Virus record (IMG/VR): IMGVR_UViG_3300041402_000217
Coordinates: 1-49,399 of that record
From: a virus
Length of the DNA stretch: 49,399 bases
Reading direction: 5' to 3' (one strand)
Shown here: in pieces, positions 7,574-26,523 of the stretch
Layout: each line of letters begins with the position of its first letter
Numbering within the stretch: the stretch's first letter is position 1
Notes under the pieces: generated by a model
Told to the model about the DNA's origin: nothing
Databases searched by the model: none
What the model saw: only the letters and a program-made list of their open reading frames with translations
Program-made: the position numbers and the translations under genes

Positions 7574-8160
7574 ATTCTACCTGCATCTCTCCAACTTTGT
7601 TTGCCCCGCTCTACATATCTTTCACCGGCGTCCTGGGCTTTCGCCTGTTGCAACACCACGGTTTCAAGATACTCAATCAACTCGATACGTAACTGGTTGG
7701 TCTGCTGTAGCGGGAAACTCAATTTAATAGCCAACTGAGCGGAAATCGCCTCGGCTAATAACGGGTCGAACTCGTTAGTATCGATAATCCTCTTGGTGTA
7801 AATCAACTCACAGGCAGAGGCGTTCGTATAAATAGCCCTGCCCTCTTTCTTGTACTCCGTCTGACCGTCGTTAAACTGCCTGATGAACAAACACCACGGG
7901 TTAGAGGGTAGCTGAAAACGATAAGCTTGTTTGTAACTGAAAGCATCAGGATCATAATCGCTGTCAGATGCTATTACTTTAGTGTGCTTGGCGCAACCCC
8001 ATTCGTGTCTTACCAGGATTTCATCTACTGCGGGATTGTAAAACAAATTACATAACCGAGAGGTTTCGCTGCCCTTTTCAATCGGGAATACCGACGTTAC
8101 AGGGTCGGCGCCCACCATACCAAGCCCTATATTGCATATATCAGCTATTGACCTTGACAT
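7570..8160 (-). CDS. Tail tubular protein A (T7 gp11-like adaptor)
   Basis: Start moved to ATG 8160 (AAGGAG 8 nt upstream), giving 196 aa. Pattern IADICN.GLG.VG..PV.S......S....C...Y......IL....W..A matches the gp11 family by eye. Confidence 0.7.
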   Translation of the reverse strand: MSRSIADICNIGLGMVGADPVTSVFPIEKGSETSRLCNLFYNPAVDEILVRHEWGCAKHTKVIASDSDYDPDAFSYKQAYRFQLPSNPWCLFIRQFNDGQTEYKKEGRAIYTNASACELIYTKRIIDTNEFDPLLAEAISAQLAIKLSFPLQQTNQLRIELIEYLETVVLQQAKAQDAGERYVERGKQSWRDAGRI

Positions 8161-9511
8161 CAGATAACTCCTTTGGTAAACAACATTCATCGAACACGGT
8201 CTTCATTTCAGTTAGCCTTGCGTGCTCGCACTTAATTGACGGGTCGCACCATAACTCAAAATTATATTGTTTGGCTTTTGCGGTAAAGAATAAATCCTGG
8301 CCTAACAGTAACGCGCCGGGAGCGAATACATCCTGATACCAGGGATAGCCCATTGTTTCCAGAACGTGCCGCTTAATTAAACAAGTAGTCCCCCCGAAGT
8401 GGTGCGCCCTGAATAATTCGCTTGGCAATTCGGCATACGGTATAGCGTTAAAGACATTATCGCAGGTCTCATCGGGGTCGTACTTCATTACCGACCAGAC
8501 CGGCTCGCCTCTATATATGGGCGTAGCACCGACGATTATATCCTTATCATGGGCAAGCAGTCTTTCTATCGCATCCACAGGCGGCAAAACGTCTTTATCT
8601 ATAAAGAAAACGTGGGTAACTCCGGGCAAGTGCTCTAACGTCTTGTGTATTACGTTGTTTCTACCGAAAGAGGCGAAACGGGTAGGCTCGTACAGAGCGA
8701 TCATGTTAGGTTTTCGTTTTTGGTACTCTATCCACAGGCAGGTTTGAACGTCAATACCTCTGTTGTAGGGGAGCGGGGCACCGATAACGATGAAATTGTC
8801 ATCCTTGCATCTCTGAATCTTGCCCTGGGCCGCCTTTATATCCATCCCCGCTTCCTCTTTCTTTACCTCGACCTTTACCTGACCTGTGTCATACGGCACC
8901 ATTATTTCGTTCTTTTTTAGAACTTCCTCCGGCTTTGGAACGTCCGCCCTGTTTATCCCGTCCGCCCTGTGCCAGTGATAGACATACACCCCACACATAA
9001 GACCGACCTTATGGCCTTTGTCCCGCAGGTCAAGATGCAAGAGATTGTCGATTCCCGTAAGACGGTTCGGTTCCATCAGCCTGAAAGGAACTTCTTTCCA
9101 TGCCGATTTCTTGTACAGAATCACTACCCCGCTAAGGGGGCTTTTGTCAGGCGGGGCCGGTAAATCAGAGCAGGTCGTTACATCTACCACCTTAACGCCG
9201 TTGTCCGCCTGAAATTCAGCGCCTATCTTCCTGTGATAAGCTATGTCATGGTTGATGTTATTGATACCCATTGGTATCTGCCAGTCCGCATACGCCCTGT
9301 TCACAGATGACGTTAAGCAGGAATATTCGGGATTCGCCTCGATAATTCTCTCCATTTGGGGATACCAGTCCGACGCAGTGAACATAGCGTCATGGTCTAT
9401 AAAGCATGCCCAATCGTCGTCATTCGGCAATAGGCGCATAAATTTATTATAGGCCCAGGCCAAGTCTCTTTCGTGCTCCTTTGGAGCGTAAGCAATAAAT
9501 GTGTAAATCAT
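8141..9511 (-). CDS. Two-domain GT-A fold glycosyltransferase (GT2-like x2)
   Basis: 456 aa. The first domain has the DxD-like FIDHDAMF, the second has FFIDKDVLPP ... IVGATPIY. The two halves have similar GT-A layout. Confidence 0.6.
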   Translation of the reverse strand: MIYTFIAYAPKEHERDLAWAYNKFMRLLPNDDDWACFIDHDAMFTASDWYPQMERIIEANPEYSCLTSSVNRAYADWQIPMGINNINHDIAYHRKIGAEFQADNGVKVVDVTTCSDLPAPPDKSPLSGVVILYKKSAWKEVPFRLMEPNRLTGIDNLLHLDLRDKGHKVGLMCGVYVYHWHRADGINRADVPKPEEVLKKNEIMVPYDTGQVKVEVKKEEAGMDIKAAQGKIQRCKDDNFIVIGAPLPYNRGIDVQTCLWIEYQKRKPNMIALYEPTRFASFGRNNVIHKTLEHLPGVTHVFFIDKDVLPPVDAIERLLAHDKDIIVGATPIYRGEPVWSVMKYDPDETCDNVFNAIPYAELPSELFRAHHFGGTTCLIKRHVLETMGYPWYQDVFAPGALLLGQDLFFTAKAKQYNFELWCDPSIKCEHARLTEMKTVFDECCLPKELSDVKVNS

Positions 9512-9514
9512 ATT

Positions 9515-10960
9515 TCAGTCCTTTCTGAACCAAAAACATCCGCACCCGTTGTTCTGCTCGGCTACCAGTTCTTTTGCATCTCTGATAAGATTGCCCGGCG
9601 TCACATCGGGTATTAACATAAACTCAACCAATTTGAGTTCTTCAAAATAACTCATAATCTGTTCATAGCTGTAAATTCGGTGGATATTGAATATAACTCT
9701 CGGCTTGCCAACCGGGACTACAAATAATAAATCGCCGGCAAGAACCCGTTTAAGTTCCGATATTGCTTTTAAGTCTCCGTCCGGGTCGAGAGGGTCGCCG
9801 TACCTGCCTAACCCTATATGCTCGACAACGTGCATACAGGAAAGAGAGGGAATCGAATTATCAGCAAACGGTAACTGTGCCAGGTCTGCAAAGTTCGTCC
9901 GCAGGCCCGACAGCGGAATATCAAGAGGGCGATAGTCATAAGAATCTATCGGGATAAACGCCGAGACTAACGTGTTGAAATAAAGCAATGAAGAGATGTC
10001 AACGTGCTTTTCGGGCGGACAGGCGGCCAGAATACGAGCGGCCCAGCCGGTGTGCATGATGTAAGGCTTGTCGCCTTTCTGTTCGGGTTCTTCCAGGCAA
10101 CGCGGGCTTCGCCTAATCTCAAACCTATTGTCTTCTTTAGACATTTGTACGAACGTCTGGTATTCCGCCACACATTTTCTTGTCCCAAATAAATAGTAAT
10201 GCTTGATTCCGTGCGGGAACTCATACGGCATTTCCAAACAGTCAAACTCGTAACTTGTGTTTTCGTGAACGAACTTTTCAAAATAATCATAGTTGTCAAA
10301 ATCATTGTGTGTTGCCTGGAATATTATGAGTACATACTTGGTGTTTATCCCGCCCAGTATCCTTTTCCGCATCTCATAAGAAACTTCCGAGATGGACCAT
10401 GTAGCGATAAAAAGGCTTTCGTCGCGTGTCATTTGTTTTTTGAAATCAACCTCATCCCGCAAATATGTAATCCGGCCATTGGTCATTTCGCCGAGATAAT
10501 ATTGCTGAAGTTGAAGTACCGCAGGCAGGTCCATAATCGTATACTCGCCGGTAAAGCCGAAATTGTGTATAAGTCTGCACATGCAGCCGTAACCGCCCCC
10601 GAACTCATAAATCTTGTTGAGATTTTCTATTTTACAGTCCGTATTTGAAAGAAAACGCGCCAGGAGTTCAGCCTGCATTATTAAATTACCACTGCTCTGC
10701 GGATACAATTCGTACGGCTCCGGATTCCCTACGGGGGATTCGACTATGGCTTTTTCCCATTTCTCCCAGTCCGGCAGGCTTTGGAGATACTCCAGGGGCG
10801 AGAGCGACCTCAACTTGGTAAACATTGTCTGTCTAATCACGTCCCATTCCGTAAAGTGGGAAATGTCGCCTGTGAGTATTTGGTCGGCTATGGCATTGTT
10901 GTAATGCCCCCAGTCCGACTCTACGCACGGCCCTGTTGCTATATCATCTATCGTCTGCAT
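9515..10960 (-). CDS. Fusion of a sugar O-methyltransferase-like domain and a DUF268-like class I SAM methyltransferase domain
   Basis: Start moved to ATG 10960 (MQTIDDIA..., parallel to the paralog start MQKIELD). The N-terminal half has YEFGGGYGCMCRL (motif I). The C-terminal half has CMHVVEHIGLGRYGDPLDPDGD...FNIHRIY. Confidence 0.65.
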   Translation of the reverse strand: MQTIDDIATGPCVESDWGHYNNAIADQILTGDISHFTEWDVIRQTMFTKLRSLSPLEYLQSLPDWEKWEKAIVESPVGNPEPYELYPQSSGNLIMQAELLARFLSNTDCKIENLNKIYEFGGGYGCMCRLIHNFGFTGEYTIMDLPAVLQLQQYYLGEMTNGRITYLRDEVDFKKQMTRDESLFIATWSISEVSYEMRKRILGGINTKYVLIIFQATHNDFDNYDYFEKFVHENTSYEFDCLEMPYEFPHGIKHYYLFGTRKCVAEYQTFVQMSKEDNRFEIRRSPRCLEEPEQKGDKPYIMHTGWAARILAACPPEKHVDISSLLYFNTLVSAFIPIDSYDYRPLDIPLSGLRTNFADLAQLPFADNSIPSLSCMHVVEHIGLGRYGDPLDPDGDLKAISELKRVLAGDLLFVVPVGKPRVIFNIHRIYSYEQIMSYFEELKLVEFMLIPDVTPGNLIRDAKELVAEQNNGCGCFWFRKD

Positions 10961-11769
10961 CTTAAGGCCTCTTCTGAAACTTCCCCGAACAAATAGAAAT
11001 GATCGGGACGATTCGTTATTTTGTTGGGAAGGGCGATAGCGGTCCATCTATAGTCAGGAATCTGCTGCGTCGTCTGACAAAAATAGGCCAGGTTGTCAAG
11101 CTCTTCGTGACTTCCCTGAAAAGCAATGAGGATGTAGTTCGCTTTATCGAGGACTGCCTGTAAAATCGCATCTCTCAACGCATAAGACACTTCTGATAAA
11201 GACCATGTTGCTATAAAAAGACTGCCGCCTTCTATTTGTTCCATAAATTCCTTACTATCCAATAAATACACAAGCTGTCCCTGTTTTACCGTTCTCCCAA
11301 GATACCACTTTTGAAGGACTTGTACGGCTGGTAAATCCATGATCGTGTACTTGCCTGAAAAACCGAGATTGTGTATAAGCCGGCACATACAACCATAGCC
11401 GCCACCGAACTCATAAATTGCTTTCAGGTCTGTCAACTTACAACTCGTTCTTGAAAGGAACTGGGAAATATGGTTCGCTTGATGTATCATGTGGTCGCTA
11501 CTCAAAGGATACCACTGGTTAGGTGTGGGATTCCCCTCCGGCACTTCCTTGATAGCTTCTTTCCATTTGTCCCAGTCGGGCAGGTTCCGGAGATATTCAA
11601 AAGCACCCTGACTGTCACCCCCCTGGCTATCGTTGTAGTGCATTGTATTACTTACTATCGGCCATTTTGTAAAGTTGTTAATGTCATCTTCTTCAATATG
11701 TTTCGCTATCTTGTTGTTGTACCCTATCCAATCGTACCGAACACAAGTGTCGAGTTCTATTTTCTGCAT
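10948..11769 (-). CDS. Sugar O-methyltransferase-like class I SAM methyltransferase (paralog of the N-terminal half of 9515-10960)
   Basis: 273 aa. Shares LPDWDKWKEAI...YEFGGGYGCMCRLIHNLGF.G.YTIMDLPAV with the adjacent gene. GGGAGG lies upstream of the ATG. Confidence 0.65.
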   Translation of the reverse strand: MQKIELDTCVRYDWIGYNNKIAKHIEEDDINNFTKWPIVSNTMHYNDSQGGDSQGAFEYLRNLPDWDKWKEAIKEVPEGNPTPNQWYPLSSDHMIHQANHISQFLSRTSCKLTDLKAIYEFGGGYGCMCRLIHNLGFSGKYTIMDLPAVQVLQKWYLGRTVKQGQLVYLLDSKEFMEQIEGGSLFIATWSLSEVSYALRDAILQAVLDKANYILIAFQGSHEELDNLAYFCQTTQQIPDYRWTAIALPNKITNRPDHFYLFGEVSEEALRCRR

Positions 11770-13043
11770 AGCAAAGCCTCCCTCTGTAATTCACCTATCC
11801 GCTCGGCGCTCAGCCCTGATGTCTCGATGACTATATCAGCTTCGCCGTTTTTCTTTTTGTACGCACCGTAACCGTTTGAATCAATTTGCTTCCATGTAAG
11901 ACCCTCTTTCGGTTTGATGTCGTATTCCCCGCCGTTGCGGGCAGCATCGCCTATCGCCGTACCCTTATAGGGGAAGAATACCGTACAGTCGAAGTCAAAC
12001 TTATCAGGATATTTCTCTCTGTATTTCCTGATGAAAATGTTTGTCTGACGTGCGGTTCTTTCCGTCTCGCCCGGTAGCCCGATTATGAAGAACGCTTTGA
12101 CTCTCATGCCAGCAGCGATAACTGTATCTATGAAATAGCCCATCTGAGGAACCGTTGTCTTTTTATTGACAGTATCGAGTATCTTCTGGCTGGCGCTCTC
12201 GGCGCCAAACCCTATCTCAACACAACCGGACTCCGCCAAAAGTTCTGCCATTTTTAATGTCATTGTCGCGGCGTGGCCGAAACACCGAAAGGCCATAGAG
12301 TGCCTTTTAAGCACTTCTAAGTAGGGTTTCGCGCGTTCGATATTTAGTGCAAAAAGGTCGTCAAAAATCATCACACCCTCATACCCCAACTCTTTGATGC
12401 TCTTAATCTCTGCCTCGAAGTGTGCTACAGAAAACCACTTGGGTTTAGTTCCCCCGCTTTCACAGAATCCGCACCGCATGGGACAACCACGCGAATTGAC
12501 CATAGTTGTAGTCTTTGCCCCGTTCAAAGTATAATTGTACCTGTCAGCATACCGATGAGGAATAGGATAGCTGTTCATCTCATCCTCGGATAGTGTGTCG
12601 CAGTACATCCTCTGTTCCGGTGTGGACTTCGGCGACAGGCGGGAACATCCACCTGTAAGTAGTTCCTCCCATATCCGCTCACCGTCACCGCAGACGATAA
12701 TATCAAAGGGGTGCTTCATGCACTCGTCGAGATAGTACGTTGCGTGTGGCCCGCCTATCATTACTGTTGTATGCGGATAATACTTTTTAATATCCTCGCA
12801 TAGCCGATAAGCCTGTGGGCCTTGCGGTGTCATGCAGGAAATAGCGACAACATCATATATCCCTACCGCGCAATGGACAAGGTTGTTGTCAGTATAATCA
12901 ACATCGGCGCCTACCCTCTCCGCTACCGCCTGTAGATACTTAACACCCAGGTACGGGAATACAAACTGGTCGTCCAGAAACGGACTATCCAGCGTGGCAA
13001 GCAATATCCGCTTGCCTGATAAATTGTCTGTATTTTTCTTCAT
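11757..13043 (-). CDS. B12-binding (class B-like) radical SAM enzyme
   Basis: 428 aa. N-terminal cobalamin-binding-like segment (VVAISCMTPQGPQ...VMIGGPHATYY), followed by RGCPMRCGFCESG, which is a CxxxCxxC radical SAM cluster motif. Confidence 0.75.
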   Translation of the reverse strand: MKKNTDNLSGKRILLATLDSPFLDDQFVFPYLGVKYLQAVAERVGADVDYTDNNLVHCAVGIYDVVAISCMTPQGPQAYRLCEDIKKYYPHTTVMIGGPHATYYLDECMKHPFDIIVCGDGERIWEELLTGGCSRLSPKSTPEQRMYCDTLSEDEMNSYPIPHRYADRYNYTLNGAKTTTMVNSRGCPMRCGFCESGGTKPKWFSVAHFEAEIKSIKELGYEGVMIFDDLFALNIERAKPYLEVLKRHSMAFRCFGHAATMTLKMAELLAESGCVEIGFGAESASQKILDTVNKKTTVPQMGYFIDTVIAAGMRVKAFFIIGLPGETERTARQTNIFIRKYREKYPDKFDFDCTVFFPYKGTAIGDAARNGGEYDIKPKEGLTWKQIDSNGYGAYKKKNGEADIVIETSGLSAERIGELQREALLCRK

Positions 13044-13758
13044 TTTCCATTACACATTTAGGAGCATCTAACGGTTCTGTCGTAAACGTCATTCCGCGCT
13101 CAAATATATCCTCTCCGGCTGCTACGCGCTCTTGCAGCCTGTTCACGTCCTTGAAGTAGTCCGTATCGTATTCGGCGTGGGCAAAAGCCTCTAACTTCTT
13201 TGGTATCTGGTCAGGCGGGACAAGGTAAGAAAAGTGCCAACCGGCGTCTGGTATATAGTCTTTATACTCGCCAAGCCGTAACTTGTCCGGCGTAACGAGA
13301 TCCTTGTACTGGCAAAAAGCGGGGTACATCCATTCCTCGTTCGCCCTGCAGTTAAAGGAATAATAAAACAGCTTCATTTGCAGCCTGGTGGGATGATGGA
13401 AATGTTTCATCAGCGGCACTACCCCACGTCTCGGTATCTCATCGAGGTCGGAAACTATGATAATGTCGTCCGCCATAGCCCCCCTCAGTCCGTACAGGAT
13501 AGCGTTTCGCTGGTTCCTGTCGTTCTCAAACCTGTCAGGTCCCATCGGAGCAGAGCAGGCAATGTGGGTTATCTTGTCCTTGAACGGACCGAATATCTCA
13601 TTGTCCTTGACCTCGTCATAGTAAAGCCGTTTTGGTTTGCCTGAGTGGGTATGAGTCGCCTCTACCAGTACAAACCTGTCAACTACCGGGGACAGTTCTT
13701 TCAGGCGAATCTCCAGTAGCATCAACTCATCGAAAAACGGGAAGCAGTCGAAAATCAT
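12985..13758 (-). CDS. Glycosyltransferase family 17-like (GnT-III-like)
   Basis: 257 aa. MIFDCFPFFDELMLLEIRLKEL..VDRFVLVEA..THSGKPK ... DDIIIVSDLDEIP ... GWHFSYL is the GT17 signature as I recall it. Confidence 0.75.
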   Translation of the reverse strand: MIFDCFPFFDELMLLEIRLKELSPVVDRFVLVEATHTHSGKPKRLYYDEVKDNEIFGPFKDKITHIACSAPMGPDRFENDRNQRNAILYGLRGAMADDIIIVSDLDEIPRRGVVPLMKHFHHPTRLQMKLFYYSFNCRANEEWMYPAFCQYKDLVTPDKLRLGEYKDYIPDAGWHFSYLVPPDQIPKKLEAFAHAEYDTDYFKDVNRLQERVAAGEDIFERGMTFTTEPLDAPKCVMENEEKYRQFIRQADIACHAG

Positions 13759-15083
13759 TTTATCGCCTCCACTCTCAGGCAGGGGGTGTCTTTGGCGTGA
13801 TAGTCCGTTGCCTCAGTAAACTTAATATATTTGAACCCGGCCCTATCGAGTATGTACCTCAGCCGGTCCTCACTCGCGCCCCATCGGTGGATGTCTGTAT
13901 CGTCGTCGTTGCGGTAACTTCCATAAATGCTTATCAGGAGTTCCTCTTTCCTCGACTCGTCGGCCTCTAAATACTCCCTCATTACGGCGTCAAGGTCGGG
14001 CATTTCAATTACCAGGTTGCCTTCAGGCTTTAAGACACGTCGCCATTCCTCTAAGACGGCTATTAACGACGCATACTTCATACCGTAATCCGGGTTTACC
14101 GCAGCGTGCAGACATACCGGGATATGTTCGAGAACATGATAGCACTCGATTGTATCGACAGTGTTGTCTTGATATGGAAGTTGCCTTATGTCGCAGATTT
14201 TGTCTGTTACCGGCGTCTTCTTGCAATCGATGTTTACGTAGCCCGGAAGATATTGTGTACCGCAGCCAAGATGAAGCCTGACGGCTTCCTTTTCATGGTG
14301 AGGAAAGGGCGAAATCGGGTCGGCGTCCCACGGGTCGAACTCTACAAGTAGTTTCTTCTGGTAATCCGGCCTCCAACATTTCTGTTCTTTTTCGCTTAAC
14401 ATCGCAGCCGTAAATGAAAATGTACTGTTAGATGCTAACAAAACGTCGCAATGCTGCAGGATGTAGTGGTCGAGGAACATGCTCAAAAGCTCCGTATTCG
14501 GCTTCAACATCATCGGCTTATATTTCTCGAAGTCCGGGAAAACGGCCTCTGGGTCGTCACTTGCGAGAAAGAGGGTTGGGTTGTTAAACCTGTCCCAGTT
14601 CTTTTCCAGCCAGTCGAGATACCACTCGTTCGGAGCTACCCGGTTCGGAGGTCTGCTGTAATCACCCCTGCGTATGTGAATACCTATCAATGGCCCTGTT
14701 AATTTATCAAAAGTCTTGCTCACCCTGTCTCGTAAGGCTTGTATCGGGGTAAATAACTCCCTGAAGAAAGTTTTGTGCGGAGCATATACAGAAGTGTGAT
14801 ATTGGAAATAACCCTTTATATTGCAGTCTTCCAGTAATTCGCCGTTGCTCCATATACACTCCTGACTTGAACCGAAATCCTTTTGCGCCCGGCCCAGCCC
14901 GGAAACAGGAAAGTCTTTGCACCCCTCAAACAGTTCCCGCCCTATCCATCTTTCAGGTATCTCTACTTTCAGATGATATTTCTCAGCGTATATCTTTAAC
15001 GCCGCGTATTGGAATAACTCGTTACCATACGAACGATTCCCGACTGTTTCGTAATCAGCCAATGTTGTCATTGATACAAACAT
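13755..15083 (-). CDS. Fusion of a GT11-like (alpha-1,2-fucosyltransferase-type) domain and a class I SAM methyltransferase domain
   Basis: The track start at 15098 is TTG; the real ATG is at 15083 with AAGGAG 6 nt upstream. GIHIRRGDY motif and ...LASNSTFSFTAAML (GT11). C-terminal LHLGCG...YHVLEHIP...VLKPEGNLVIE (Methyltransf_11-like). Confidence 0.65.
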   Translation of the reverse strand: MFVSMTTLADYETVGNRSYGNELFQYAALKIYAEKYHLKVEIPERWIGRELFEGCKDFPVSGLGRAQKDFGSSQECIWSNGELLEDCNIKGYFQYHTSVYAPHKTFFRELFTPIQALRDRVSKTFDKLTGPLIGIHIRRGDYSRPPNRVAPNEWYLDWLEKNWDRFNNPTLFLASDDPEAVFPDFEKYKPMMLKPNTELLSMFLDHYILQHCDVLLASNSTFSFTAAMLSEKEQKCWRPDYQKKLLVEFDPWDADPISPFPHHEKEAVRLHLGCGTQYLPGYVNIDCKKTPVTDKICDIRQLPYQDNTVDTIECYHVLEHIPVCLHAAVNPDYGMKYASLIAVLEEWRRVLKPEGNLVIEMPDLDAVMREYLEADESRKEELLISIYGSYRNDDDTDIHRWGASEDRLRYILDRAGFKYIKFTEATDYHAKDTPCLRVEAIK

Positions 15084-15099
15084 AATATCTCCTTTCAAT

Positions 15100-15152
15100 C
15101 CTTTTCGGTTAAAAGGGGTCGGGGTAGAAAGGATTGAAATCCAACCTACCCC
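15100..15152 (-). terminator. Tandem stem-loops directly after the capsid/cement genes (possible attenuating terminator or RNA-stability element)
   Basis: Minus strand GGGGTAG..GGATTTCAATCC..CTACCCC (15121-15152) followed by CCTTTTAACCGAAAAGG (15100-16). Lies in the 68-nt gap between the cement stop and the next SD. Confidence 0.4.
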
Positions 15153-15166
15153 TCGCCCTTATTTAC

Positions 15167-15616
15167 TTACGTACCTACTTTAGTCAAAGGTGTAGCACCA
15201 CTAACCCAGGCATTGAACTCTGTTGCCCATGCGGTTTCCGCATTATGCCGCCAGTACATCAGCCGCAGATAACGACTGTGAGAGTTGGGGATTGCAACTT
15301 GCAATATCACCCCATCACTGTCGCTTGCCGCTTGTATCTCCGGAATACGCATTCTTTTCTCTAACAAGAATGTGTCCGTAGCCGCAAAAGCTGCGCCTGT
15401 GCTGCCCTGCAACTTGAAGCTGCACCATTCCGTTGCACCAATAAAGGTGTAAGGAGTGGCGATTGTTATGTTCAGGTAAAGCGGAGTGCCGGAACCGATG
15501 TCTAAATTCTCGGCTCCGAGGTCGATGATATTGGTGGAAAACGTCTGAGTTGCCGCGGCCGTTGCTCCGACCGTCTGAGTAGAACTAAAGATAAGTTTTG
15601 CGTCTCTTATACTCAT
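15167..15616 (-). CDS. Capsid cement/decoration protein (Bordetella phage BPP-1 Bbp16-like)
   Basis: 149 aa. MSIRDAKLIFSSTQTVGATAAATQTFSTNIIDLG...GSGTPLYL pattern. ATGA overlap with the capsid gene immediately upstream. Confidence 0.6.
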   Translation of the reverse strand: MSIRDAKLIFSSTQTVGATAAATQTFSTNIIDLGAENLDIGSGTPLYLNITIATPYTFIGATEWCSFKLQGSTGAAFAATDTFLLEKRMRIPEIQAASDSDGVILQVAIPNSHSRYLRLMYWRHNAETAWATEFNAWVSGATPLTKVGT

Positions 15617-16647
15617 GTTAAGGGTACCTCCTTACTTCCAATAGCATCCACTCGCCTTACGGGAACACCCCTGAACAGGGTTGTCGGCCTACCGCTCCAG
15701 TCACCAATGGTGTAAAGCACGTTCGTCCTGTCGACAGCGTGAATATCCATCTGCGTCTTGGTGTTTTCGTTGCAATAGATTCTGGCACCTGCACCCTTAT
15801 AAGGCAGGGCGTTAAGCGCCTCAATCAACTTGTGATGGATAGTTGCCGTGCTGCTACCGAATGACATGGTTGCAGCTATCTCTGTACGGAGGTTGGCAAT
15901 TCGCCTGATACAACGGTCGTCTCGGACTACAAGACCCGGATGGACCTTGAAGTGACTTACCAACGCCTGCATTAAAGCAGGTGCAGCGTAAGTGCCGCTT
16001 GCCTCGATGGTCTGTTCGCCGAGATTCTCATGGACTATACCCATAGTGGGTGAACCTTTCGGGTAGACCATGTGAACCTTATCCGCACCCCACTGAACGA
16101 TATAGATACTCGTATCAGCAGTGGTAGACGCTGCGCCACCGTCATAGACGTTAAATAGATTTATATCGTCTAATCGAGCAGGAAAACCGTTGAACCTTGC
16201 GGGGTATGTCTCGGCGTCGCCGTAAATAGTCGTCACGTCGCCTGAATTGTCCGCAGTGAACATGACCTTCGACAGTTCCTTGGCAAGTCCTTGTACAAAG
16301 GCTTTGTCCTCACCAGAACGAAACTGGTTGGTATTGCCGGACAGTTCTGCCAGGAGTTTATCAACACGGCTGTACGCCTCAAGGATACCAATACCCTCGG
16401 TGATTTGATTGGTACTGGATGCTTCAGGAGCAACACCTTGATTGATTGCACGCCATGTTCCGGTCGGCTCACTGGTCCGCTGGGTCGTAATATGACTCAT
16501 CGGCTGGTTTGCCTGTATCCAGATGGCGTCTTCCATCCATTCTTCAGTTGTCAGAAGAACTTCAACAATCGCTTGGAGGGCACCGAAATTGGTCCGCTTG
16601 GCTAACTGTTCAAGAGTAAGCTGGTCTCTGGTATTAAATTCAGTCAT
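15613..16647 (-). CDS. Major capsid protein (HK97-fold family)
   Basis: 344 aa. Position after the scaffold gene. Pattern ...W.QAN.P..H.TTQRTS.PTGTWRAINQGV...S...Q.TE......AYS.VDK matches the podovirus capsid family by eye. GGAG precedes the ATG. Confidence 0.8.
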   Translation of the reverse strand: MTEFNTRDQLTLEQLAKRTNFGALQAIVEVLLTTEEWMEDAIWIQANQPMSHITTQRTSEPTGTWRAINQGVAPEASSTNQITEGIGILEAYSRVDKLLAELSGNTNQFRSGEDKAFVQGLAKELSKVMFTADNSGDVTTIYGDAETYPARFNGFPARLDDINLFNVYDGGAASTTADTSIYIVQWGADKVHMVYPKGSPTMGIVHENLGEQTIEASGTYAAPALMQALVSHFKVHPGLVVRDDRCIRRIANLRTEIAATMSFGSSTATIHHKLIEALNALPYKGAGARIYCNENTKTQMDIHAVDRTNVLYTIGDWSGRPTTLFRGVPVRRVDAIGSKEVPLT

Positions 16648-16727
16648 AGCTTATTCTCCAATAAAAAAGCGAGATTTATCGGAGAACTCCCCGCTACCGT
16701 AGCGGACTCTCCTGCAAGTTACGCCTG

Positions 16728-17756
16728 TTAGACGACCTGACTTACAGGTTTACACTGGACCCTGCCGCTTCCACCGACCTGACCTCGGCTTTCACTGGTA
16801 GAGCTACCCAGGTTATCTTTCTCGCTGCCTACCCTTTCGGAACAGCGAAAATAATCTATTGTTCTTTTTAATCCTTCACGTAATAATACTTTTGGATTCC
16901 AACCCAACTTCTGCGCTAAAGTTATATCCGGGCATCTTCGCTTGGGGTCGTCTTCCGGCAAATCCTTAAATACTATGTTTAGCTTTGAGTTTATCATATC
17001 TTTGATGATTTTTGCCAGCGCGTATATATGTCTTTCGTCTGGATTGCCCAAGTTGACTGGATAATGGTCCCCCGAATCCATCAACGTAATAAGCCCATCA
17101 ACCATATCATCAACATAGCAGAAACTCCGGGTCTGTTGGCCGTCTCCGAAAATGATAAAATCCTGACCTCTTAGAGCCTGCATAATAAAGTTACTGACCA
17201 CTCTGCCATCGTCCACAGCCATACGCGGGCCGTAAGTATTGAATATCCGGGCTATTCTTATATCGACTCCATACTCGCGATGATAGTCCGTAAAGAGAGT
17301 CTCCGCGCACCGCTTACCCTCGTCATAACACGACCTCGGACCGATAGGATTGACATTGCCCCAGTATTCCTCACCTTGCGGGTGCTCTAACGGATCGCCG
17401 TAAACCTCCGATGTTGACGCCTGGAGTATCCTGGCGCCTACCCGTTTGGCCAAACCAAGCATATTGATAGCCCCGATAACCGCTGTCTTCGTGGTCTGAA
17501 CGGGGTCAACCTGATACCAGAGCGGTGAGGCCGGACACGCTAAATTGTATATCTCATCGACCTGGACGTACAGGGGGAGTGTAATATCATGCCTGATGAA
17601 TTCAAAACGGGGGTGTTTGAGTAAATGATGGATATTGCTCCTACTGCCGCTAAAGCAGTTATCTACGCATATAACCTCATTGCCCCATGCAATCAGCCTA
17701 TCGCACAAGTGCGACCCTATGAATCCTGCACCGCCTGTTACCAAAATTGTTTTCAT
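16728..17756 (-). CDS. UDP-glucuronate decarboxylase / UDP-xylose synthase-type SDR (UXS-like)
   Basis: 342 aa. [12 protein letters not shown] Rossmann motif, [21 protein letters not shown] (YxxxK) and [12 protein letters not shown] are classic UXS strings. About 38 extra C-terminal residues. ATGA overlap with the scaffold stop. Confidence 0.8.
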
Positions 17757-18511
17757 TTGCCAGTATTTCCTACTACTTTTGAATAATCCAACTCGCCCGG
17801 CTCGGTGGTCTTACCTGGTGGTTCTCCGCCAGACGGTGCAACATCGCCCTTGACCAGCTTCCACGCTTCCATAAAGAACTCAATAACCGCAGGGTGAGAA
17901 TCCAAACCGTTGGCTTTCAGTACCTCCACGAAAGACTGGTTGACTACATCGTCGCCCGGCAAGTTGTAGAACCGATTAGCCATGTCAACACCTGCATCGT
18001 ACTGGGCGCCCAGCTTGGCCTTCAACTCGTTGGTCTTGGTCTCTACCGCCTGGTCGTTGGCTGTCTTTAATGCGGTTACTGCATCATCGTTCGCCTTGAA
18101 TAAGGCGTCAATAACCATCTTCGCCTGGCCCTCATAGACGGTCTTTGAAATGCCGTTGTCGTGAGCATACTTGGACATAGCTGTAATAAGTTTCTCGTTA
18201 TACTCCTTGCCATCTTCCCTGGCTATCTCATAGCCCTCGACCGTCGGAGGACAGCCCTGCTTGGTGTAATGGGCGCGTTTCTGCTCTGGCGTAGCGTCAG
18301 CGGCTAAAGGCTGTATCGCCGTACCCAGCATCTTGTCCTTGTTGAGATAGCTCTTTACTACCGACCCAATGTTCTTGTGGTCGGCTAAATCGCCTTGTTT
18401 CGGCTTTCCGGCATCGTCGTTCTCAAACGTACCTGCCGGCAGACTGTCCATCCAGCCATCTGTAAAAGACCCATCTTCGCCTAAAACTGCTACTGCTTCT
18501 GTCTCAGCCAT
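17753..18511 (-). CDS. Scaffolding protein
   Basis: 252 aa, acidic and helical, no enzymatic motifs. Lies in the portal-to-capsid interval as in T7-like order. Confidence 0.6.
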
Positions 18512-19568
18512 CGTTCAACCCTTTCTGTTTTACTAAGCCACAAATATTGATTATCTGCTCGTCCGTCAGATTCACCGACGACGGCAGCCATAAACCCCGA
18601 TGGCTGAATCTCTTAGATACAGGATAACTCTTGCCATCAGCGTATATCTTCTGTTCGTTAATAGGCTTATATACCAGTCTCGAACCAACCCCATTCTCCT
18701 TAAGATGCTCTTGAACTACCGTAGGGTTGTCGAGATAAATGTCCACAAACCAAGGCGTTGACTCGTTTGAGCCGTGGATCATCTCAAATACATCGCTTAA
18801 CTGTGATTCATACACTTGGTAGATATGCCTTTTCCGCCCTGAAGCCCAAGGCAGTTTCTTCATCTGCTCTATACCAATAACCGCCTGTAAGTCTGTGAAC
18901 TTGAAATTGTAACCCAAAGTATTGTGTATATCACTGCCGTCTCTGCCCCAGTCCTTTAACTTCCTTATTTTGTCGTACAACCCCTCATCGTCCGTTACCA
19001 AGGCCCCGCCCTGACCGGTGGTAACTATCTTGGGCGAACTGAATGAAAATACGCCTATATCGCCGAAAGTGCCTAAATGCCTACCATTGTGGAATGAGCC
19101 TAATGACTGGCAGGCGTCTTCAATGAGAGTCAAGTTGTTTGCTGTGCAGAAATCCTGAAACCTTGCCATATCCAAAGCACGGCCATTAAGCGAAACATTT
19201 ATGATTGCTCTTGTTTTTTCTGATAATGACCATACACAATCTAAATCCATACACAGCGATTTAGCCTCTATATCCACCAGAACCGGCGTTGCGCCTACCA
19301 TTCTAACGGCGTTGGGCGTGGCTATCATCGTGTAATTGGGCACGAGAACCTCATCGCCGTATCCGATACCACAGGCCCACAGAGCTACCGCAAGGGCAAC
19401 CGTGCCGCTTGGTACGACTACGCAATACTTACTGCCGACATATTCAGCTATCTTGCACTCGAACTCCGTAGTCCTGTCGTATTCAGTCAACCACGCGCCT
19501 GACTGTAAGTAATTGTTCATGGCCTCGACTTCGTATCCGTCTATGTTTGGCTCTATCTGGTTTATCAT
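18504..19568 (-). CDS. DegT/DnrJ/EryC1/StrS-family PLP-dependent sugar aminotransferase
   Basis: Start placed at ATG 19568 (MINQIEPNIDGYE...), 1 nt after the upstream stop; the track start is 19649. Motifs VPSGTVAL..AL, DEVLVPNYT and FSFSSPKIVTTGQGGALVT (PLP lysine). Confidence 0.8.
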   Translation of the reverse strand: MINQIEPNIDGYEVEAMNNYLQSGAWLTEYDRTTEFECKIAEYVGSKYCVVVPSGTVALAVALWACGIGYGDEVLVPNYTMIATPNAVRMVGATPVLVDIEAKSLCMDLDCVWSLSEKTRAIINVSLNGRALDMARFQDFCTANNLTLIEDACQSLGSFHNGRHLGTFGDIGVFSFSSPKIVTTGQGGALVTDDEGLYDKIRKLKDWGRDGSDIHNTLGYNFKFTDLQAVIGIEQMKKLPWASGRKRHIYQVYESQLSDVFEMIHGSNESTPWFVDIYLDNPTVVQEHLKENGVGSRLVYKPINEQKIYADGKSYPVSKRFSHRGLWLPSSVNLTDEQIINICGLVKQKGLNDG

Positions 19569-19569
19569 A

Positions 19570-21306
19570 TCAATACCTGCCTCTTGTGCGGGCAAAACCG
19601 GTATCCTTTTTCGTACCATATCTATGACGAGCGGATTTTGTGCCTGCATAGTATTCTCTTTTTATTTCGCTTGCCGACAATACCCCTGAATATATCCTTA
19701 CGTCGCTTATACTGCCTGTAACAAGCTGGACCGGGCCACCATCACTGTCTGGTTTTCCCCCAATAGTTACGATGTCAACCGTGGTTGGAAAATCAGTAGC
19801 CGCCGTATCCGTTGTACTATTGGCCGAAAAAACACCATTTACATATATATCTCTATTTGCGTCCGAGTGCCAGATTCCTACTACGTGAACCCATTCGTTG
19901 TAAATCGCTGAAATCGCAGAAACAGTGTCAACGGGTACAGCTGCGCCGCCTTTCATTCTCATTATCGGGACACCGTTTTTAAGGTCTAATCCCATCCATC
20001 GGAGATTAATCCCCGTAACACCATCAAGGGCAATCATTAATAATGTGGAGGTTTGGGAAGAAGGTATTTTATACCACGCAGAAAAGGTGCACGGAAAACT
20101 CAACAACGGCACAGCGGCGTCATCTATATAATCGCCCGTTCCGTCTAATGTTAAGCCATGACCGACAGGTGCTAATACTGAAACTACATCCTCGCTGTTT
20201 GTTCCGTGATAAGCGTTGCCGCTGCTGTCAATAATGGCCCCCGCGCCAGCCGCCGTTCCATCCGCCTCGTCTAATTTCCAATGAGCGACAAGGGGTGTAG
20301 CCGTTTTGTAGCTTCTCTGGTGGCCGTAACCTGTTAAAGTTACCAACCCCTCCTGTCCGTTAATTGTTGTATGGGTCGGTGATGTTATCTCTAAGACCGC
20401 ATGAGAGAATCGGCCCGTATCAGTTTCGTCTTCACCCCACAAATCCCCTCGTAAGTTGATGTACACAATTCCATTTACGATTTCAGTTCTATCGTCAACG
20501 TGAATATGACCCTGAATGACTACGGGTTTTATCGTCTGGGCTTCCATTGCAATTACAGCAGCCGCGCCGCCGCCAGTTGCCCCTTCAGCGCGGGTTGTGT
20601 ATAATGGCTGATGGGTTACTACTATTACCGGCGTCCCAGCCCCCTCTGCGACAGCCAAGTGGCTTTCAAACCAAGCCTCTTGTGTCGATGCCCCGCCCGA
20701 ATCATCGCCGGTAGTCTCCATATCTATAACTGCACCCGGATTGCATAAAACAAGTATCATAAAGCCGCTATCGTCAAAACGATAAGCACAGTAAGTGTCG
20801 TTGGCGACATCAGGGTTAAGATTGTCCGGCCACCACATATCAGCGTCTCTGCCCGCTGGTATAATATCAGTAACCCCGCTCGAAAGACCCGTAAACGCAG
20901 CGGCAACATCCGTCCCAGTCATAGTAGCGCCGCCTATATCCCAATGGCCGAAACAATACAGCATATCCGCATTAAGACCGTTACTCGATGCGTGAGCGCC
21001 ATCTATCCAACTGACAAGTTCTGCGTAATTCTGGGCGACAGTGCCATCGGTAGCGTCGTTTATCATATCGCCACCGTGAATTACCAAATCGACTACGTCT
21101 GTGTTGAACTGGTCAATGGCCTTGCCCATTGAATTGTCTTGGAAACCAGGTAATCGTTTTCCGGGTTTGTCGCCATACGGGTCAGCCGCAGTACCCTCTG
21201 TAAGACGAATATGAGTATCATACCATAAGCCTACTTTAATAGTTGCCGAAGGCCAACAGACCGAACACGATAACAACAACAGAAATAAGATTATAAACTT
21301 TCGCAT
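19570..21306 (-). CDS. Exported (lipoprotein-type signal) calcineurin-like metallophosphoesterase fused to a C-terminal LamG domain
   Basis: 578 aa. MRKFIILFLLLLSCSV has a lipobox-like LLSC. Phosphoesterase motifs YDTHI, HGGDMIND, GHWD, VVTHQP and QGHIHVDD. The C-terminus has LVAHWKLDE...GVLSASEIKREY (LamG). Confidence 0.7.
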   Translation of the reverse strand: MRKFIILFLLLLSCSVCWPSATIKVGLWYDTHIRLTEGTAADPYGDKPGKRLPGFQDNSMGKAIDQFNTDVVDLVIHGGDMINDATDGTVAQNYAELVSWIDGAHASSNGLNADMLYCFGHWDIGGATMTGTDVAAAFTGLSSGVTDIIPAGRDADMWWPDNLNPDVANDTYCAYRFDDSGFMILVLCNPGAVIDMETTGDDSGGASTQEAWFESHLAVAEGAGTPVIVVTHQPLYTTRAEGATGGGAAAVIAMEAQTIKPVVIQGHIHVDDRTEIVNGIVYINLRGDLWGEDETDTGRFSHAVLEITSPTHTTINGQEGLVTLTGYGHQRSYKTATPLVAHWKLDEADGTAAGAGAIIDSSGNAYHGTNSEDVVSVLAPVGHGLTLDGTGDYIDDAAVPLLSFPCTFSAWYKIPSSQTSTLLMIALDGVTGINLRWMGLDLKNGVPIMRMKGGAAVPVDTVSAISAIYNEWVHVVGIWHSDANRDIYVNGVFSANSTTDTAATDFPTTVDIVTIGGKPDSDGGPVQLVTGSISDVRIYSGVLSASEIKREYYAGTKSARHRYGTKKDTGFARTRGRY

Positions 21307-21314
21307 AGCTTCCC

Positions 21315-21914
21315 TTAATAACCTGAAACCTCAACAATGCAATCCTCATCGAATGTGTCCCATCCGTGGAACAGGAACCTGTTATAACCAAGTGTATCAT
21401 CAATATAAAACAGGGCCATCGTATCATCGTCGTCGGAAATAGCCGAAACACCGCCGCGCCACGTTTCGTTAGAGATGTTTATAGTTTGCGCAAAATGATT
21501 CGTAGCATTGGTATAGTTCTGCAACCCACAAATTACATCCAGCGTACATACCCGCCTCATCTCGTTAATACCCCGACACGCCCAGACATCTATATCCACA
21601 TCTTCGTCGTTGGTAGTTAAGACAAATCGTACCTCGAGAGCGTTCATGCCCGGCAATGTTTCCACATATACGGAATTATCCAGGGCAGCGGCAGAAGCAA
21701 AGTCTCTTTCGGCTACACCTAATGTGTCGTCAGCGTCGCCAGCGGTTGCGTCTATCGTGCCAATCGGAAGCCACGGCAAGTGGGCTGAAGACAGAATTGT
21801 TTCGTTAGTCGGCAGATACTTCGCTCTGTCGATTATGTCCGCTCTCATAAGATTAGCGCCAACAAACAGAATGAGCAATAAGGCGATAGTCATTACACTG
21901 TGTTTCGATGTCAT
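21315..21914 (-). CDS. Signal-anchored/secreted protein of unknown function
   Basis: 199 aa. N-terminal hydrophobic segment VMTIALLLILFVGANLM. AGGAGA lies 6 nt upstream of the ATG. Confidence 0.6.
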   Translation of the reverse strand: MTSKHSVMTIALLLILFVGANLMRADIIDRAKYLPTNETILSSAHLPWLPIGTIDATAGDADDTLGVAERDFASAAALDNSVYVETLPGMNALEVRFVLTTNDEDVDIDVWACRGINEMRRVCTLDVICGLQNYTNATNHFAQTINISNETWRGGVSAISDDDDTMALFYIDDTLGYNRFLFHGWDTFDEDCIVEVSGY

Positions 21915-21924
21915 TTTGATTCTC

Positions 21925-22329
21925 CTAAATTAGTACCTTGTCCTTTTCTACCGTAATATACGGCCCGTTCTTGCACTCTATTATTTTGGTGTCGGGCTGT
22001 CTTATCTTGAAACCATGCGCGCCATTGACCATGACTATAAAATCGCCGCTACTAAGCACCTCAGTACGAAACAGCCGATTATTCTCGTCATACAAGTTCA
22101 CTTCCAGTAACCCCGATAAGACGATATTGCACTCTTGCGTCAGATTGTTTGGCCGTTCGTTCTCAATATGGCGGTGAGGCTTGCATTTGTTGTCCTCCTG
22201 ATACCAGAATGTGCCTACTTGCAAGAACATCTCATCCGGTGTGATGAAGTTAAGCCCTTTCTGCCAGCCTGCTGCCCGGAGTATAATCGCGTAAAGCACG
22301 CCGTCTTTCCTTATTTCCTCTGCCACCAT
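21925..22329 (-). CDS. Cupin-fold protein, possibly a nucleotide-sugar ketoisomerase/epimerase
   Basis: The cupin core (KPHRHIENE...ECNIVLSGLLEVNLYD) lies after Met54 of the track ORF (21925-22488, TTG start). The shorter start is chosen because the upstream 93-aa ORF is coupled on both sides. The start remains uncertain. Confidence 0.5.
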   Translation of the reverse strand: MVAEEIRKDGVLYAIILRAAGWQKGLNFITPDEMFLQVGTFWYQEDNKCKPHRHIENERPNNLTQECNIVLSGLLEVNLYDENNRLFRTEVLSSGDFIVMVNGAHGFKIRQPDTKIIECKNGPYITVEKDKVLI

Positions 22330-22592
22330 TGCCTCCGTTTCTGCGGGATAATACCCAGCATATTCTGTATTATTATCTGGTAATTGCCAGGCTTCCAGAA
22401 CCCGCTTTTCTCTAATATCTTCTTGGCGTGGATATTGAGTACGTTCTGTTCCGCCGGGGTCAAGGCCTTTGAAGTGCATGTATCCCAAAAGCCTAAAGCG
22501 CCCAATATGTCCACTAATACCCGCGCACCGTCACCAGAAGTAAAGGTGTTGCGATAAGCCTGGTTGCGCTCTGTGTCATTATTGAATATCAT
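22311..22592 (-). CDS. Small head-module protein (hypothetical)
   Basis: 93 aa. ATGA overlap with the upstream ORF. The segment AYRNTFTSGDGARVLVDILGALGF resembles small proteins found next to portal genes in some podoviruses (from memory only). Confidence 0.45.
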   Translation of the reverse strand: MIFNNDTERNQAYRNTFTSGDGARVLVDILGALGFWDTCTSKALTPAEQNVLNIHAKKILEKSGFWKPGNYQIIIQNMLGIIPQKRRQWWQRK

Positions 22593-22834
22593 CTCTTGTT
22601 ACCTAAACAGACCTTTTCTATCGGCAGCCATTCCCACATATCAAAGGCAGAACAATAAAGAGCGTGATCCTCTGTTGCCCTGCCGCGAGTTGTATATAAC
22701 TTTTTGCAAAGAGGGCACGCCGCTAACCAACGGCCACAATTTGTTTTAAGCAAAAGGCTTAATAATTTAGTCACTTTACATTTAACGCACAGAGCAGTAC
22801 CATACTTGCCAGATGCTTCAAAAACCGCCATCAT
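22589..22834 (-). CDS. Small zinc-ribbon-like protein
   Basis: 81 aa with CVKC...CPLC. ATGA overlaps at both ends (portal stop and next start). Confidence 0.45.
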   Translation of the reverse strand: MMAVFEASGKYGTALCVKCKVTKLLSLLLKTNCGRWLAACPLCKKLYTTRGRATEDHALYCSAFDMWEWLPIEKVCLGNKR

Positions 22835-26482: not shown

Positions 26483-26523
26483 AAAAAAAGGGGCGCATCG
26501 AGTATTAAACCCAACGCGCCCCT
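26483..26523 (-). terminator. Intrinsic terminator immediately upstream of terS
   Basis: Minus strand AGGGGCGC-(19 nt)-GCGCCCCT followed by TTTTTTT. Perfect 8-bp GC-rich stem. Lies 20 nt before the terS ATG. Confidence 0.65.

Follow-up and report, generated by a model that had tools for sequence, protein, structure and literature searches.

The window analysed here, the 49,399 nucleotides of IMG/VR virus record IMGVR_UViG_3300041402_000217, is the genome of what its genes indicate to be a podophage with an epsilon15/BPP-1-type capsid, and in it the genes for head and tail are interleaved with a module of glycan-synthesis and glycan-tailoring genes. Cytoplasmic glycosylation of the virion by phage-encoded enzymes is the best explanation of this module, and one to which we give about even credence; on that best explanation, glycosylation belongs to the morphogenesis module of an epsilon15/BPP-1-like podophage lineage. 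The evidence that carries this reading is largely comparative. A core of three genes, encoding a fucosyltransferase-methyltransferase fusion, a GT17-family glycosyltransferase and a double GT-A glycosyltransferase, keeps a fixed position between the cement and tail tubular A genes of related genomes and includes a member as conserved as the capsid, and both features strengthen a virion-linked role.

Glycan genes between the head and tail genes

A preliminary description of the window had held that genes normally contiguous from the portal to the tail tube are here interrupted three times by carbohydrate genes, and both parts of this claim are borne out. The portal-to-tail order is uninterrupted, one or two short genes of unassigned function apart, in vir555, L040 and L050; in vir555, the closest GenBank phage (capsid 40% identical), nothing but short genes breaks the stretch from portal to tail tubular B, and two IMG/VR outgroups also have an unbroken order between capsid and tail tubular B. 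In the window, glycan genes separate portal from scaffold (interruption a), scaffold from capsid (b), and cement from tail tubular A (c), the open reading frames (ORFs) lying where they had been placed. As had also been described, the carbohydrate genes are co-oriented with the structural genes, all being on the minus strand, the only one on which the window has plausible genes.

An assembly artefact is ruled out as the cause of the interleaving by a second, independent public assembly of the same genome (Logan SRR13165000, 49,302 bp) and by a layout common to eight relatives. The window's own assembly closes into a circle of about 49,272 bp: bases 1-127 are identical to bases 49273-49399, so it represents a complete genome.

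Interruption a is bounded upstream by the portal gene (22831-24549, minus strand, as are all features below; Pfam Head-tail_con 1.8e-69), whose product is 44-66% identical in relatives. The scaffold gene (17753-18511; phrog_3742 2.9e-17; 45-58% identical in relatives) has the same position as in vir555. Two candidate acceptors of a glycan follow, the major capsid protein of epsilon15/BPP-1 GP7 type (15613-16647; Pfam GP7 5.7e-81), which matches the BPP-1 (3j4u, 1.7e-44) and epsilon15 (3j40, 4.3e-38) capsids in the PDB, and the cement or decoration protein of Bbp16 type (15167-15616; Pfam Bbp16 1.9e-10). Interruption c ends at tail tubular A (7570-8190; phrog_394 3.9e-33), which probably starts at ATG 8160, where a Shine-Dalgarno sequence precedes the codon and near which, at about residue 10, the alignments of relatives begin.

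The inserted enzymes comprise four glycosyltransferase (GT) domains, four S-adenosylmethionine (SAM)-dependent methyltransferase domains, one radical SAM enzyme and three nucleotide-sugar enzymes, one of these, a cupin, being a weak assignment; the earlier tally was thus right. Their genes occupy 9.4 kb, or 19% of the genome (24% with the genes of two exported proteins), and all the enzymes are predicted to be soluble, with no hydrophobic or membrane segment in any of them.

The three core enzymes

The first gene of the conserved core (13755-15083) encodes a fusion of a GT11/GT23-type fucosyltransferase with a class I SAM methyltransferase (FucT-MT). Its Pfam matches to GT11 (28.7 bits, cut-off 23.9) and to Methyltransf_11 are both above cut-off, and it carries the fucosyltransferase motif I, HIRRGDY. 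In its predicted structure (predicted local distance difference test, pLDDT, 86), the N-terminal domain matches FUT8, NodZ and AtFUT1 (E 5e-9 to 1e-7) and the C-terminal domain matches class I methyltransferases. Family, motif and fold thus all agree with the GT11-like plus methyltransferase fusion initially read from the sequence. The protein is 45-73% identical in all eight relatives. Many relatives have a longer fusion of 600-630 residues with an extra N-terminal methyltransferase domain, giving an MT-FucT-MT arrangement (L005 11526-13439 and proteins P0183-P0200).

The second core gene (12985-13758) is, as proposed, a GT17-family glycosyltransferase (Pfam 7.1e-33) with a DLD motif; it is 54-71% identical in all relatives, and L013 has a second copy. 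Searches of PDB sequences with FucT-MT and GT17 gave no significant match. The gene that closes the core (8141-9511), the best conserved of the three, encodes a double GT-A glycosyltransferase, an assignment that rests on a predicted model (pLDDT 87) with GT-A domains at about residues 1-180 and 225-445, on a DHD motif at residue 39 and a DKD motif at residue 305, and on Foldseek matches to LH3, ColGalT1, mimivirus R699, K4CP, LARGE1, PmHS2 and STIV A197; here too the preliminary description was correct.

Conservation in related genomes

Capsid-based searches of protein, metagenome and viral collections yielded eight distinct relatives (L005, L006, L008, L013, L014, L015, L016 and L018) with capsids 66-83% identical to that of the window; like the window, their sequences originate from sediment metagenomes. 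The interleaved synteny, which the preliminary description had suggested looking for in other phages, recurs in these eight genomes. FucT-MT and GT17 directly follow the cement gene in all eight relatives that reach past cement (8/8), and the double GT-A gene stands directly before tail tubular A in each of the relatives whose contig extends that far (7/7). Between GT17 and the double GT-A gene lie one to three variable genes, which include radical SAM, DUF268 or other methyltransferases, DegT and the second GT17.

Identity to the window, given in the order capsid, double GT-A, portal and tail tubular A, is 83, 83, 66 and 60% for L006; 73, 74, 65 and 58% for L014; 72, 74, 66 and 58% for L015; 72, 74, 65 and 57% for L016; 70, 64, 60 and 61% for L008; 66, 66, 48 and 58% for L005; and 66, 67, 44 and 50% for L018. 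The double GT-A protein is therefore conserved as strongly as the capsid (64-83%) and above portal, scaffold and tail tubular A, and this tracking of the capsid points to vertical inheritance as a core gene and not to a recent addition. At the level of at least 50% identity, the double GT-A family comprises at least 30 protein clusters and FucT-MT about 36, all of them metagenomic, on contigs of at most about 49 kb; no named bacterial or archaeal genome contributes a member. FucT-MT and GT17 are missing from outgroups whose capsids are about 50% identical, yet these outgroups have a GT2-type gene directly after cement.

More distant homologues of the double GT-A protein occur in several settings. 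A 33%-identical two-domain homologue lies in the head-tail module of an unrelated sipho-type contig (L154 10001-11164), among head-completion and tail genes and roughly where the major tail protein would be expected, and another lies between an S49 protease/scaffold and a putative capsid gene in a lambda-like contig (L155 6547-8235). Overall, two of these contexts are structural, one is unclear and two are replication or early regions, which makes them a mixed independent test. In representative genomes, a double GT-A profile recovered only homologues of the N-terminal domain, in Planctomycetota, Desulfobulbaceae, Syntrophales and cyanobacteria, and no phage genes adjoin them. In a census of the genes flanking related GT-A genes in 38 viral contigs, most of the neighbours encode further glycan enzymes (TOD1/MUCI70-like transferases, methyltransferases, GT2, GT-D, epimerases and sulfotransferases); multi-gene glycan clusters thus appear common in such environmental viral contigs, and no published account of them was found in the literature searched.

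Expression and a conserved RNA hairpin

Stop-start overlaps link DegT to scaffold, scaffold to UDP-glucuronate decarboxylase (UXS), capsid to cement, FucT-MT to GT17, and others; the ORF coordinates give the overlaps that had been pointed out, of 4 nt at 17753-17756 and 13755-13758 and of 8 nt at 18504-18511. The only strong coding-strand terminator in the scanned 7-26.6 kb stretch is a terminator-like hairpin of 15 pairs followed by a T-run (26489-26523, minus strand) just upstream of the terminase block; the early and late regions probably meet here.

The 83-nt gap between the cement gene and FucT-MT (15084-15166) holds a conserved GC-rich RNA hairpin with a fold of -26.7 kcal/mol (z -2.8). 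In its loop, 12-14 nt are complementary to a stretch that ends about 9-10 nt before the FucT-MT start codon, and both the stem and this loop-to-downstream pairing are kept with compensatory changes in seven of eight genomes. In the window, L014 and L016 the loop is UUCAAUCCUUUC and its downstream partner GAAAGGAUUGAA; the corresponding pairs are UUCAUUCCUUUC and GAAAGGAAUGAA in L013, and UUCAGUUCUUUC and GAAAGAACUGAA in L015. The hairpin loci in relatives are L005 11506-11600, L006 9973-10060, L013 3821-3905, L014 11493-11580, L015 11493-11582 and L016 9379-9465. The pairing was assessed by a direct complementarity search with shuffles, the MAFFT alignment having a one-column register shift between sequences, and the observed pairing length was reached by at most 6 of 1,000 shuffles in seven of the eight genomes. 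The hairpin matches no Rfam family.

The element has the appearance of a pseudoknot or of a structure that masks the ribosome-binding site, and is a candidate attenuator or translational throttle through which the enzymes would be made together with the virion proteins at a lower level. Late expression of the glycan genes with the virion proteins, as expected in the preliminary description, is likely in view of the overlaps and the single coding strand; what has to be amended is that it appears to be modulated, with the conserved hairpin separating cement from FucT-MT.

Accessory genes

Around the invariant core, the other genes of the module vary. Which of UXS, DegT, the cupin, the radical SAM enzyme and the extra methyltransferases a genome carries differs among relatives, so these are accessories and not parts of one fixed pathway. 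The UXS gene, between scaffold and capsid (16728-17756), encodes an enzyme that would make UDP-xylose. The protein matches human UXS1 at 2e-119 over residues 2-306 (next family 4e-43) and has the NAD-binding GGAGFIG motif at residue 8 and the catalytic YxxxK, here YDEGK, at residue 144, in line with its first identification. UXS occupies the same place in L014, L016 and L018 and is absent from L005, L006, L008, L013 and L015.

Between portal and scaffold, the gene at 18504-19568 encodes, as had been recognised, a DegT/DnrJ/EryC1-type sugar aminotransferase dependent on pyridoxal phosphate (Pfam 2.9e-90). Its closest matches in the PDB are sugar aminotransferases, perosamine synthetase, QdtB and ArnB among them, and the ATG of the gene at 19568 overlaps the stop codon of the gene upstream. 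An obligatory ArnA/ArnB-like pairing of UXS and DegT to make a 4-amino-pentose was considered and rejected, since the two genes occur independently among relatives; the window's UXS is also far closer to true UXS than to ArnA.

The cupin described at 21925-22329 is a weak assignment; the product is tentatively a small WbuC-like cupin, probably a nucleotide-sugar tailoring enzyme. The WbuC model TIGR04366 scores 7.6e-9 and 35.5 bits, below the cut-off of 42; homologues give marginal matches to Cupin_2 (0.009) and Cupin_3 (0.04); and the window protein has an HRH motif, with no Pfam match and no significant PDB match, either alone or as a family profile. Read from an upstream TTG (21925-22488), the ORF would share about 180 nt with a 93-residue gene (22311-22592) that is read in a different frame, and tblastn gives alignments to L002 for the cupin frame and for that of the 93-residue gene alike; relatives start the cupin near ATG 22329, so the longer frame is probably not translated. 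A cupin follows the portal in five genomes (the window, L006, L013, L014 and L015), in the last four of which a truncated DegT-like gene of about 240 residues comes next (the two together at L006 6177-7297, L014 6329-7446 and L015 7379-8627); within the clade, a full-length DegT gene in this slot together with two exported proteins is found in the window only. The cupin also stands beside an SDR and a methyltransferase gene in unrelated viral contigs (L151 11457-13966, downstream of a terminase gene; L133 7021-8586; L097 5192-7028), a recurrence that suggests a mobile nucleotide-sugar tailoring cassette common to phages.

The two exported proteins are the only inserted proteins of the window with N-terminal signals. 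One (19570-21306) was initially labelled simply as exported; its signal peptide (MRKFIILFLLLLSC) agrees with that, and the label is better given as an exported calcineurin-type phosphoesterase with a LamG lectin-like domain, possibly a lipoprotein (Metallophos 3.8e-6, Laminin_G_3 6.9e-20, phrog_8510 'virion structural protein' 1.5e-11). Its LamG is 28% identical to the LamG region of a tail protein of L010. The other (21315-21914), also described as exported, has an N-terminal hydrophobic signal or anchor and no family match; in L010, a homologue 46% identical to it is encoded ahead of the terminase gene. In the same slots, relatives have small genes whose products show a twin-arginine-like or hydrophobic N-terminus (MNRRNLIK..., MNRRIFMK...), at L015 15541-15888, L008 7893-8435 and L015 6416-6682, so the slots also collect genes for exported proteins. 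In L011 (11950-13581, the same as the L043 contig; capsid 47% identical), the slot between cement and tail tubular A holds a 543-residue Wzy_C membrane protein, Wzy_C being O-antigen ligase/polymerase-like.

Between GT17 and the double GT-A gene, the window has three accessory genes, all in agreement with their first description. The gene at 11757-13043 encodes a B12-binding radical SAM enzyme (PF02310 7e-16, PF04055 2.8e-17) with a CxxxCxxC motif, CPMRCGFC, at residue 187; all its scores against NCBIfam subfamily models are far below cut-off, and a role as sugar C-methylase or dehydratase seems probable. It is present in L006, L013, L014, L015 and L016 and absent from L005, L008 and L018. The two remaining genes are paralogues. 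That at 10948-11769 encodes a class I, sugar O-methyltransferase-like enzyme (TIGR04371 4.2e-7, below cut-off), and that at 9515-11047, whose true start is probably ATG 10960, a two-domain methyltransferase in which the second paralogue (TIGR04371 1.6e-7, sub-threshold) is fused to a C-terminal DUF268 half (3.2e-13). The former is 47% identical to the N-terminal half of the latter (2e-81), with an FGGGYG SAM motif, and the DUF268 half recurs in L005, L006, L014, L015 and L016.

Other features of the genome

The late block runs from terminase (24761-26134) through portal, scaffold, capsid, cement, tail tubular A and tail fibre to tail tubular B, and continues round the circle into large internal-virion genes. 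The 746-residue tail fibre, encoded between tail tubular A and B (5333-7573; PHROG tail-fibre matches), is conserved only in its N-terminal anchor, about the first 210 residues, with a distal part that varies in relatives. The tail tubular B homologue (855-5288), found by tblastn against the vir555 tail protein, is unusually long at 1477 residues and has a LamG insertion (Laminin_G_3 4.9e-30) related to the LamG of the exported phosphoesterase.

The early region has small ORFs only, the largest of 227 residues, a size that argues against an integrase. Pfam and PHROG scans of the early, late and internal-virion ORFs of at least 120 residues found no polymerase, integrase, thymidylate-synthase homologue or TET-like enzyme in the early region, and no match to an integrase or repressor in the complete genome, which also encodes no initiating phosphoglycosyltransferase, flippase, polymerase or ligase. 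PADLOC gave no meaningful defence-system match. Among the small genes are one for a DNA methyltransferase-like protein (phrog_11619), two tRNA genes, Thr-TGT and Glu-TTC (28121-28197 and 39881-39954), two HNH endonuclease genes (40335-40964 and 31596-32021), and one for a protein (28594-29019) that matches the cREC_REC domain (cyclic-phosphate processing receiver, 2e-16) and may counter a defence system based on cyclic nucleotides.

GC content is uniform across the region (0.42-0.54). A megablast of the region against GenBank phages gave no match, no GenBank phage record has a capsid protein more than 40% identical, and a capsid profile scan of representative genomes for prophage relatives or a host found nothing.

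Proposed function and alternative explanations

If the module glycosylates the virion, the head and tail genes would be transcribed late in infection together with the enzyme genes, with which they share a strand and from which no strong terminator divides them, and the hairpin after the cement gene would probably lower enzyme output relative to capsid and cement. In the cytoplasm, before or during assembly, FucT-MT, GT17 and the double GT-A enzyme would then put together an oligosaccharide directly on a virion protein, most likely capsid or cement and possibly a tail protein. Accessories specific to each genome, of known enzyme class and presumed chemistry, would diversify the sugar: UXS would supply UDP-xylose, DegT and the cupin would make an amino sugar from a host keto-sugar, and up to four SAM methyltransferase domains and the B12 radical SAM enzyme would methylate or deoxygenate it. 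The host would provide GDP-fucose, UDP-glucuronate and SAM. The virion protein may thus come to bear a methylated oligosaccharide that contains fucose, xylose and an amino sugar. Contrary to the preliminary description, the system is not self-contained, since the genome has no route to GDP-fucose or UDP-glucuronate and no dehydratase for the keto-sugar of DegT.

Virion glycosylation is the best explanation in view of the solubility of the enzymes, the lack of lipid-carrier machinery in a complete genome, the lytic layout, the GT-A homologues inside structural modules of unrelated sipho-type and lambda-like contigs, and Foldseek matches that include the two-domain protein glycosyltransferases LH3, ColGalT1 and mimivirus R699. 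The enzyme assignments, the interleaving and the comparative data accordingly favour the decoration of virion proteins first suggested for this module, while its acceptor is a candidate only. An apparently clade-specific Ser/Thr-rich capsid loop, seen against near outgroups, was set aside as a sign of the acceptor, a segment of similar length being present in BPP-1 and epsilon15.

Several observations weigh against virion glycosylation. The capsid has no Ser/Thr-rich tail, C-terminal extension or module-specific acceptor feature. The slots carry genes for exported proteins in the window and its relatives and the Wzy_C protein in L011/L043, and may simply tolerate insertions that act on the envelope. 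In bacteria, soluble GT11 and GT2 enzymes usually elongate glycans carried on lipids, the fold matches of the double GT-A enzyme equally take in the polysaccharide polymerases K4CP, LARGE1 and PmHS2, and distant homologues of its N-terminal domain lie in replication or early regions and in bacterial chromosomes. These points lead to the idea that the enzymes remodel the host envelope late in infection, extending or tailoring a lipid-linked O-antigen, capsule or S-layer glycan that host machinery exports, so that the altered surface blocks superinfection or stops progeny from sticking to debris. GT11, GT2, DegT and WbuC-type cupins are indeed typical of bacterial O-antigen loci, the two exported proteins, one of them the phosphoesterase-LamG protein, stand beside DegT, small signal-peptide genes share the slots in relatives, and the N-terminal GT-A domain has chromosomal homologues in bacteria; the exported proteins and Wzy_C, between cement and tail tubular A, keep this alternative open. 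It is a serious rival, which we nevertheless consider less likely than virion glycosylation. The absence of an integrase and the single-strand layout speak against lysogenic conversion, and none of the initiating transferase, flippase, polymerase and ligase of such a pathway is encoded. Moreover, the core is fixed in place and conserved like the capsid while the distal parts of the tail fibre differ, so the module does not track receptor specificity, and the two-domain GT and the FucT-MT fusion were met only on phage-like contigs.

Sugars might alternatively be added to a modified DNA base shortly before packaging, as a protection against restriction. Phage GT-A enzymes can glycosylate DNA, and hypermodification takes place late, before packaging (10.1101/2023.12.21.572611; PMC13326640); on other contigs, N-terminal GT-A homologues adjoin DNA polymerase and primase genes or lie near a C5 DNA methylase, and the window has its small DNA methyltransferase-like gene. 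The scans, however, found no thymidylate-synthase homologue, TET/5mYOX or Pfam-recognisable C5 methylase, the early ORFs reaching at most 227 residues, and no DNA-metabolism gene adjoins the module. We know of no fucosyltransferase-type or GT17 enzyme that acts as a DNA transferase. Thymidylate synthase is not among the top families in the census of 38 contigs, where the neighbours of viral GTs are mostly glycan enzymes, and the known phage route to a pentose (arabinosyl) on DNA starts from ribulose-5-phosphate, without UXS (PMC13326640). DNA glycosylation is in our view very improbable. The genes may also lack any joint function, the three interruptions being independent auxiliary genes at permissive sites with different targets. 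The patchy occurrence of UXS, DegT, cupin, radical SAM and methyltransferase genes among close relatives would fit this, as would the unrelated small genes that different genomes hold in the portal-to-scaffold slot; still, such independence seems a slender prospect beside a three-gene core that is invariant in order and position in all relatives reaching it, inserted enzymes that share one theme (the making, transfer and methylation of sugars), and the recurrence in unrelated viral contigs of SDR, cupin, methyltransferase and short DegT genes together, and likewise of GT-A with GT17 and DegT.

Comparison with known glycosylation systems

The closest precedent in function is found in Corndog-type mycobacteriophages, and the closest in concept in the capsid glycosylation of chloroviruses; at the sequence level, the module appears to belong to neither the actinobacteriophage nor the chlorovirus system. 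Virion glycosylation in actinobacteriophages is described in PMC11600133 (citing Freeman et al. 2023) for Corndog (cluster O) and Che8 (cluster F), in which subunits of the capsid and tail tube are reportedly modified by the enzymes. In Corndog, the glycan genes lie within or beside the structural operon and are co-oriented with it (PMC4351075), a layout similar to the three same-strand insertions of the window from portal to tail tubular A. Both systems have phage-encoded glycosyltransferases and O-methyltransferase; other points of likeness are enzymes absent from the virion, an actinobacteriophage feature, and a lytic phage without an integrase. The differences are considerable. Corndog-type phages are siphophages of Mycobacterium, whereas the window comes from sediment metagenomes and belongs to a podophage with an epsilon15/BPP-1 capsid and a cement protein; its enzyme families (FucT-MT fusion, GT17 and double GT-A) are different, and its module is much larger, with UXS, DegT, a cupin, four methyltransferase domains and a B12 radical SAM enzyme. 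Glycosylation has been shown in the former and is predicted from the genes in the window. The only resemblance to an actinophage GT is one of fold (Gordonia phage Sixama, E 1.2e-8), and the GenBank phage matches to the double GT-A protein, among the matches listed, are to enterobacterial, cyanobacterial and Campylobacter phages.

In the chlorovirus PBCV-1, the capsid is glycosylated by A064R and related enzymes, and N-linkage to Vp54 is established. As there, soluble multi-domain enzymes join GT and methyltransferase domains, the virus has nucleotide-sugar enzymes of its own, and the sugars predicted for the window (fucose, xylose and O-methylated sugars) fit the chlorovirus repertoire; PBCV-1 protein Q98454 is among the fold matches. 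PBCV-1, however, is a eukaryotic giant virus with a double-jelly-roll capsid, there is no sequence-level homology, and the chlorovirus glycan genes are scattered, whereas those of the window are embedded in a morphogenesis operon.

The module lacks the defining features of both lysogenic-conversion systems and DNA-glycosylation pathways. Gtr-type systems are those of temperate phages; the prophage expresses them, and they consist of membrane-embedded enzymes encoded near integration and lysogeny genes. The Gtr clusters and the phages epsilon15 and phiV10 resemble the window in having phage genes that act on sugars, and the epsilon15 and phiV10 capsids are 34-36% identical to that of the window; in contrast to the Gtr type, the window has no integrase, its enzymes are soluble and their genes lie among late structural genes. 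Phage DNA glycosylation (T4 glucosyltransferases, 5mYOX- or ThyS-associated GTs, arabinosyl-5-hydroxycytosine) likewise employs phage GT-A enzymes that act late, sometimes with sugar-nucleotide enzymes, but needs an enzyme for a hydroxylated base beside the GT, of which there is none among the scanned ORFs of the window.

Implications

To our knowledge, the only tailed phages shown to glycosylate their own particles are some actinobacteriophages, in which the modification alters antibody recognition. GT and methyltransferase genes inside a phage structural operon are thus known; what is new here is the phage lineage, the enzyme families, the richer set of tailoring enzymes and the dedicated RNA element. 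The fuller proposition, that glycosylation is a core and vertically inherited step of virion morphogenesis in a widespread lineage of sediment podophages, with interchangeable tailoring genes that give strain-specific virion glycans and with expression set by the RNA element, is one we put forward with somewhat less than even confidence.

If virion glycosylation is what the module does, it would not be peculiar to phages of mycobacteria and would be a recurrent strategy of environmental phages, which possess diversifying tailoring enzymes of their own; this would be the first self-encoded virion glycome outside the actinobacteriophages and a prokaryotic-virus counterpart of chlorovirus capsid glycosylation. 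The lineage also has a phage-encoded B12 radical SAM enzyme whose substrate is probably a sugar, and offers compact, soluble, acceptor-specific modules as candidates for use in glyco-engineering. The nine genomes, with the same core and different accessories, are a concrete test set, and the reading suggests a reason for the unexplained clusters of GT, methyltransferase and epimerase genes in many environmental phages.

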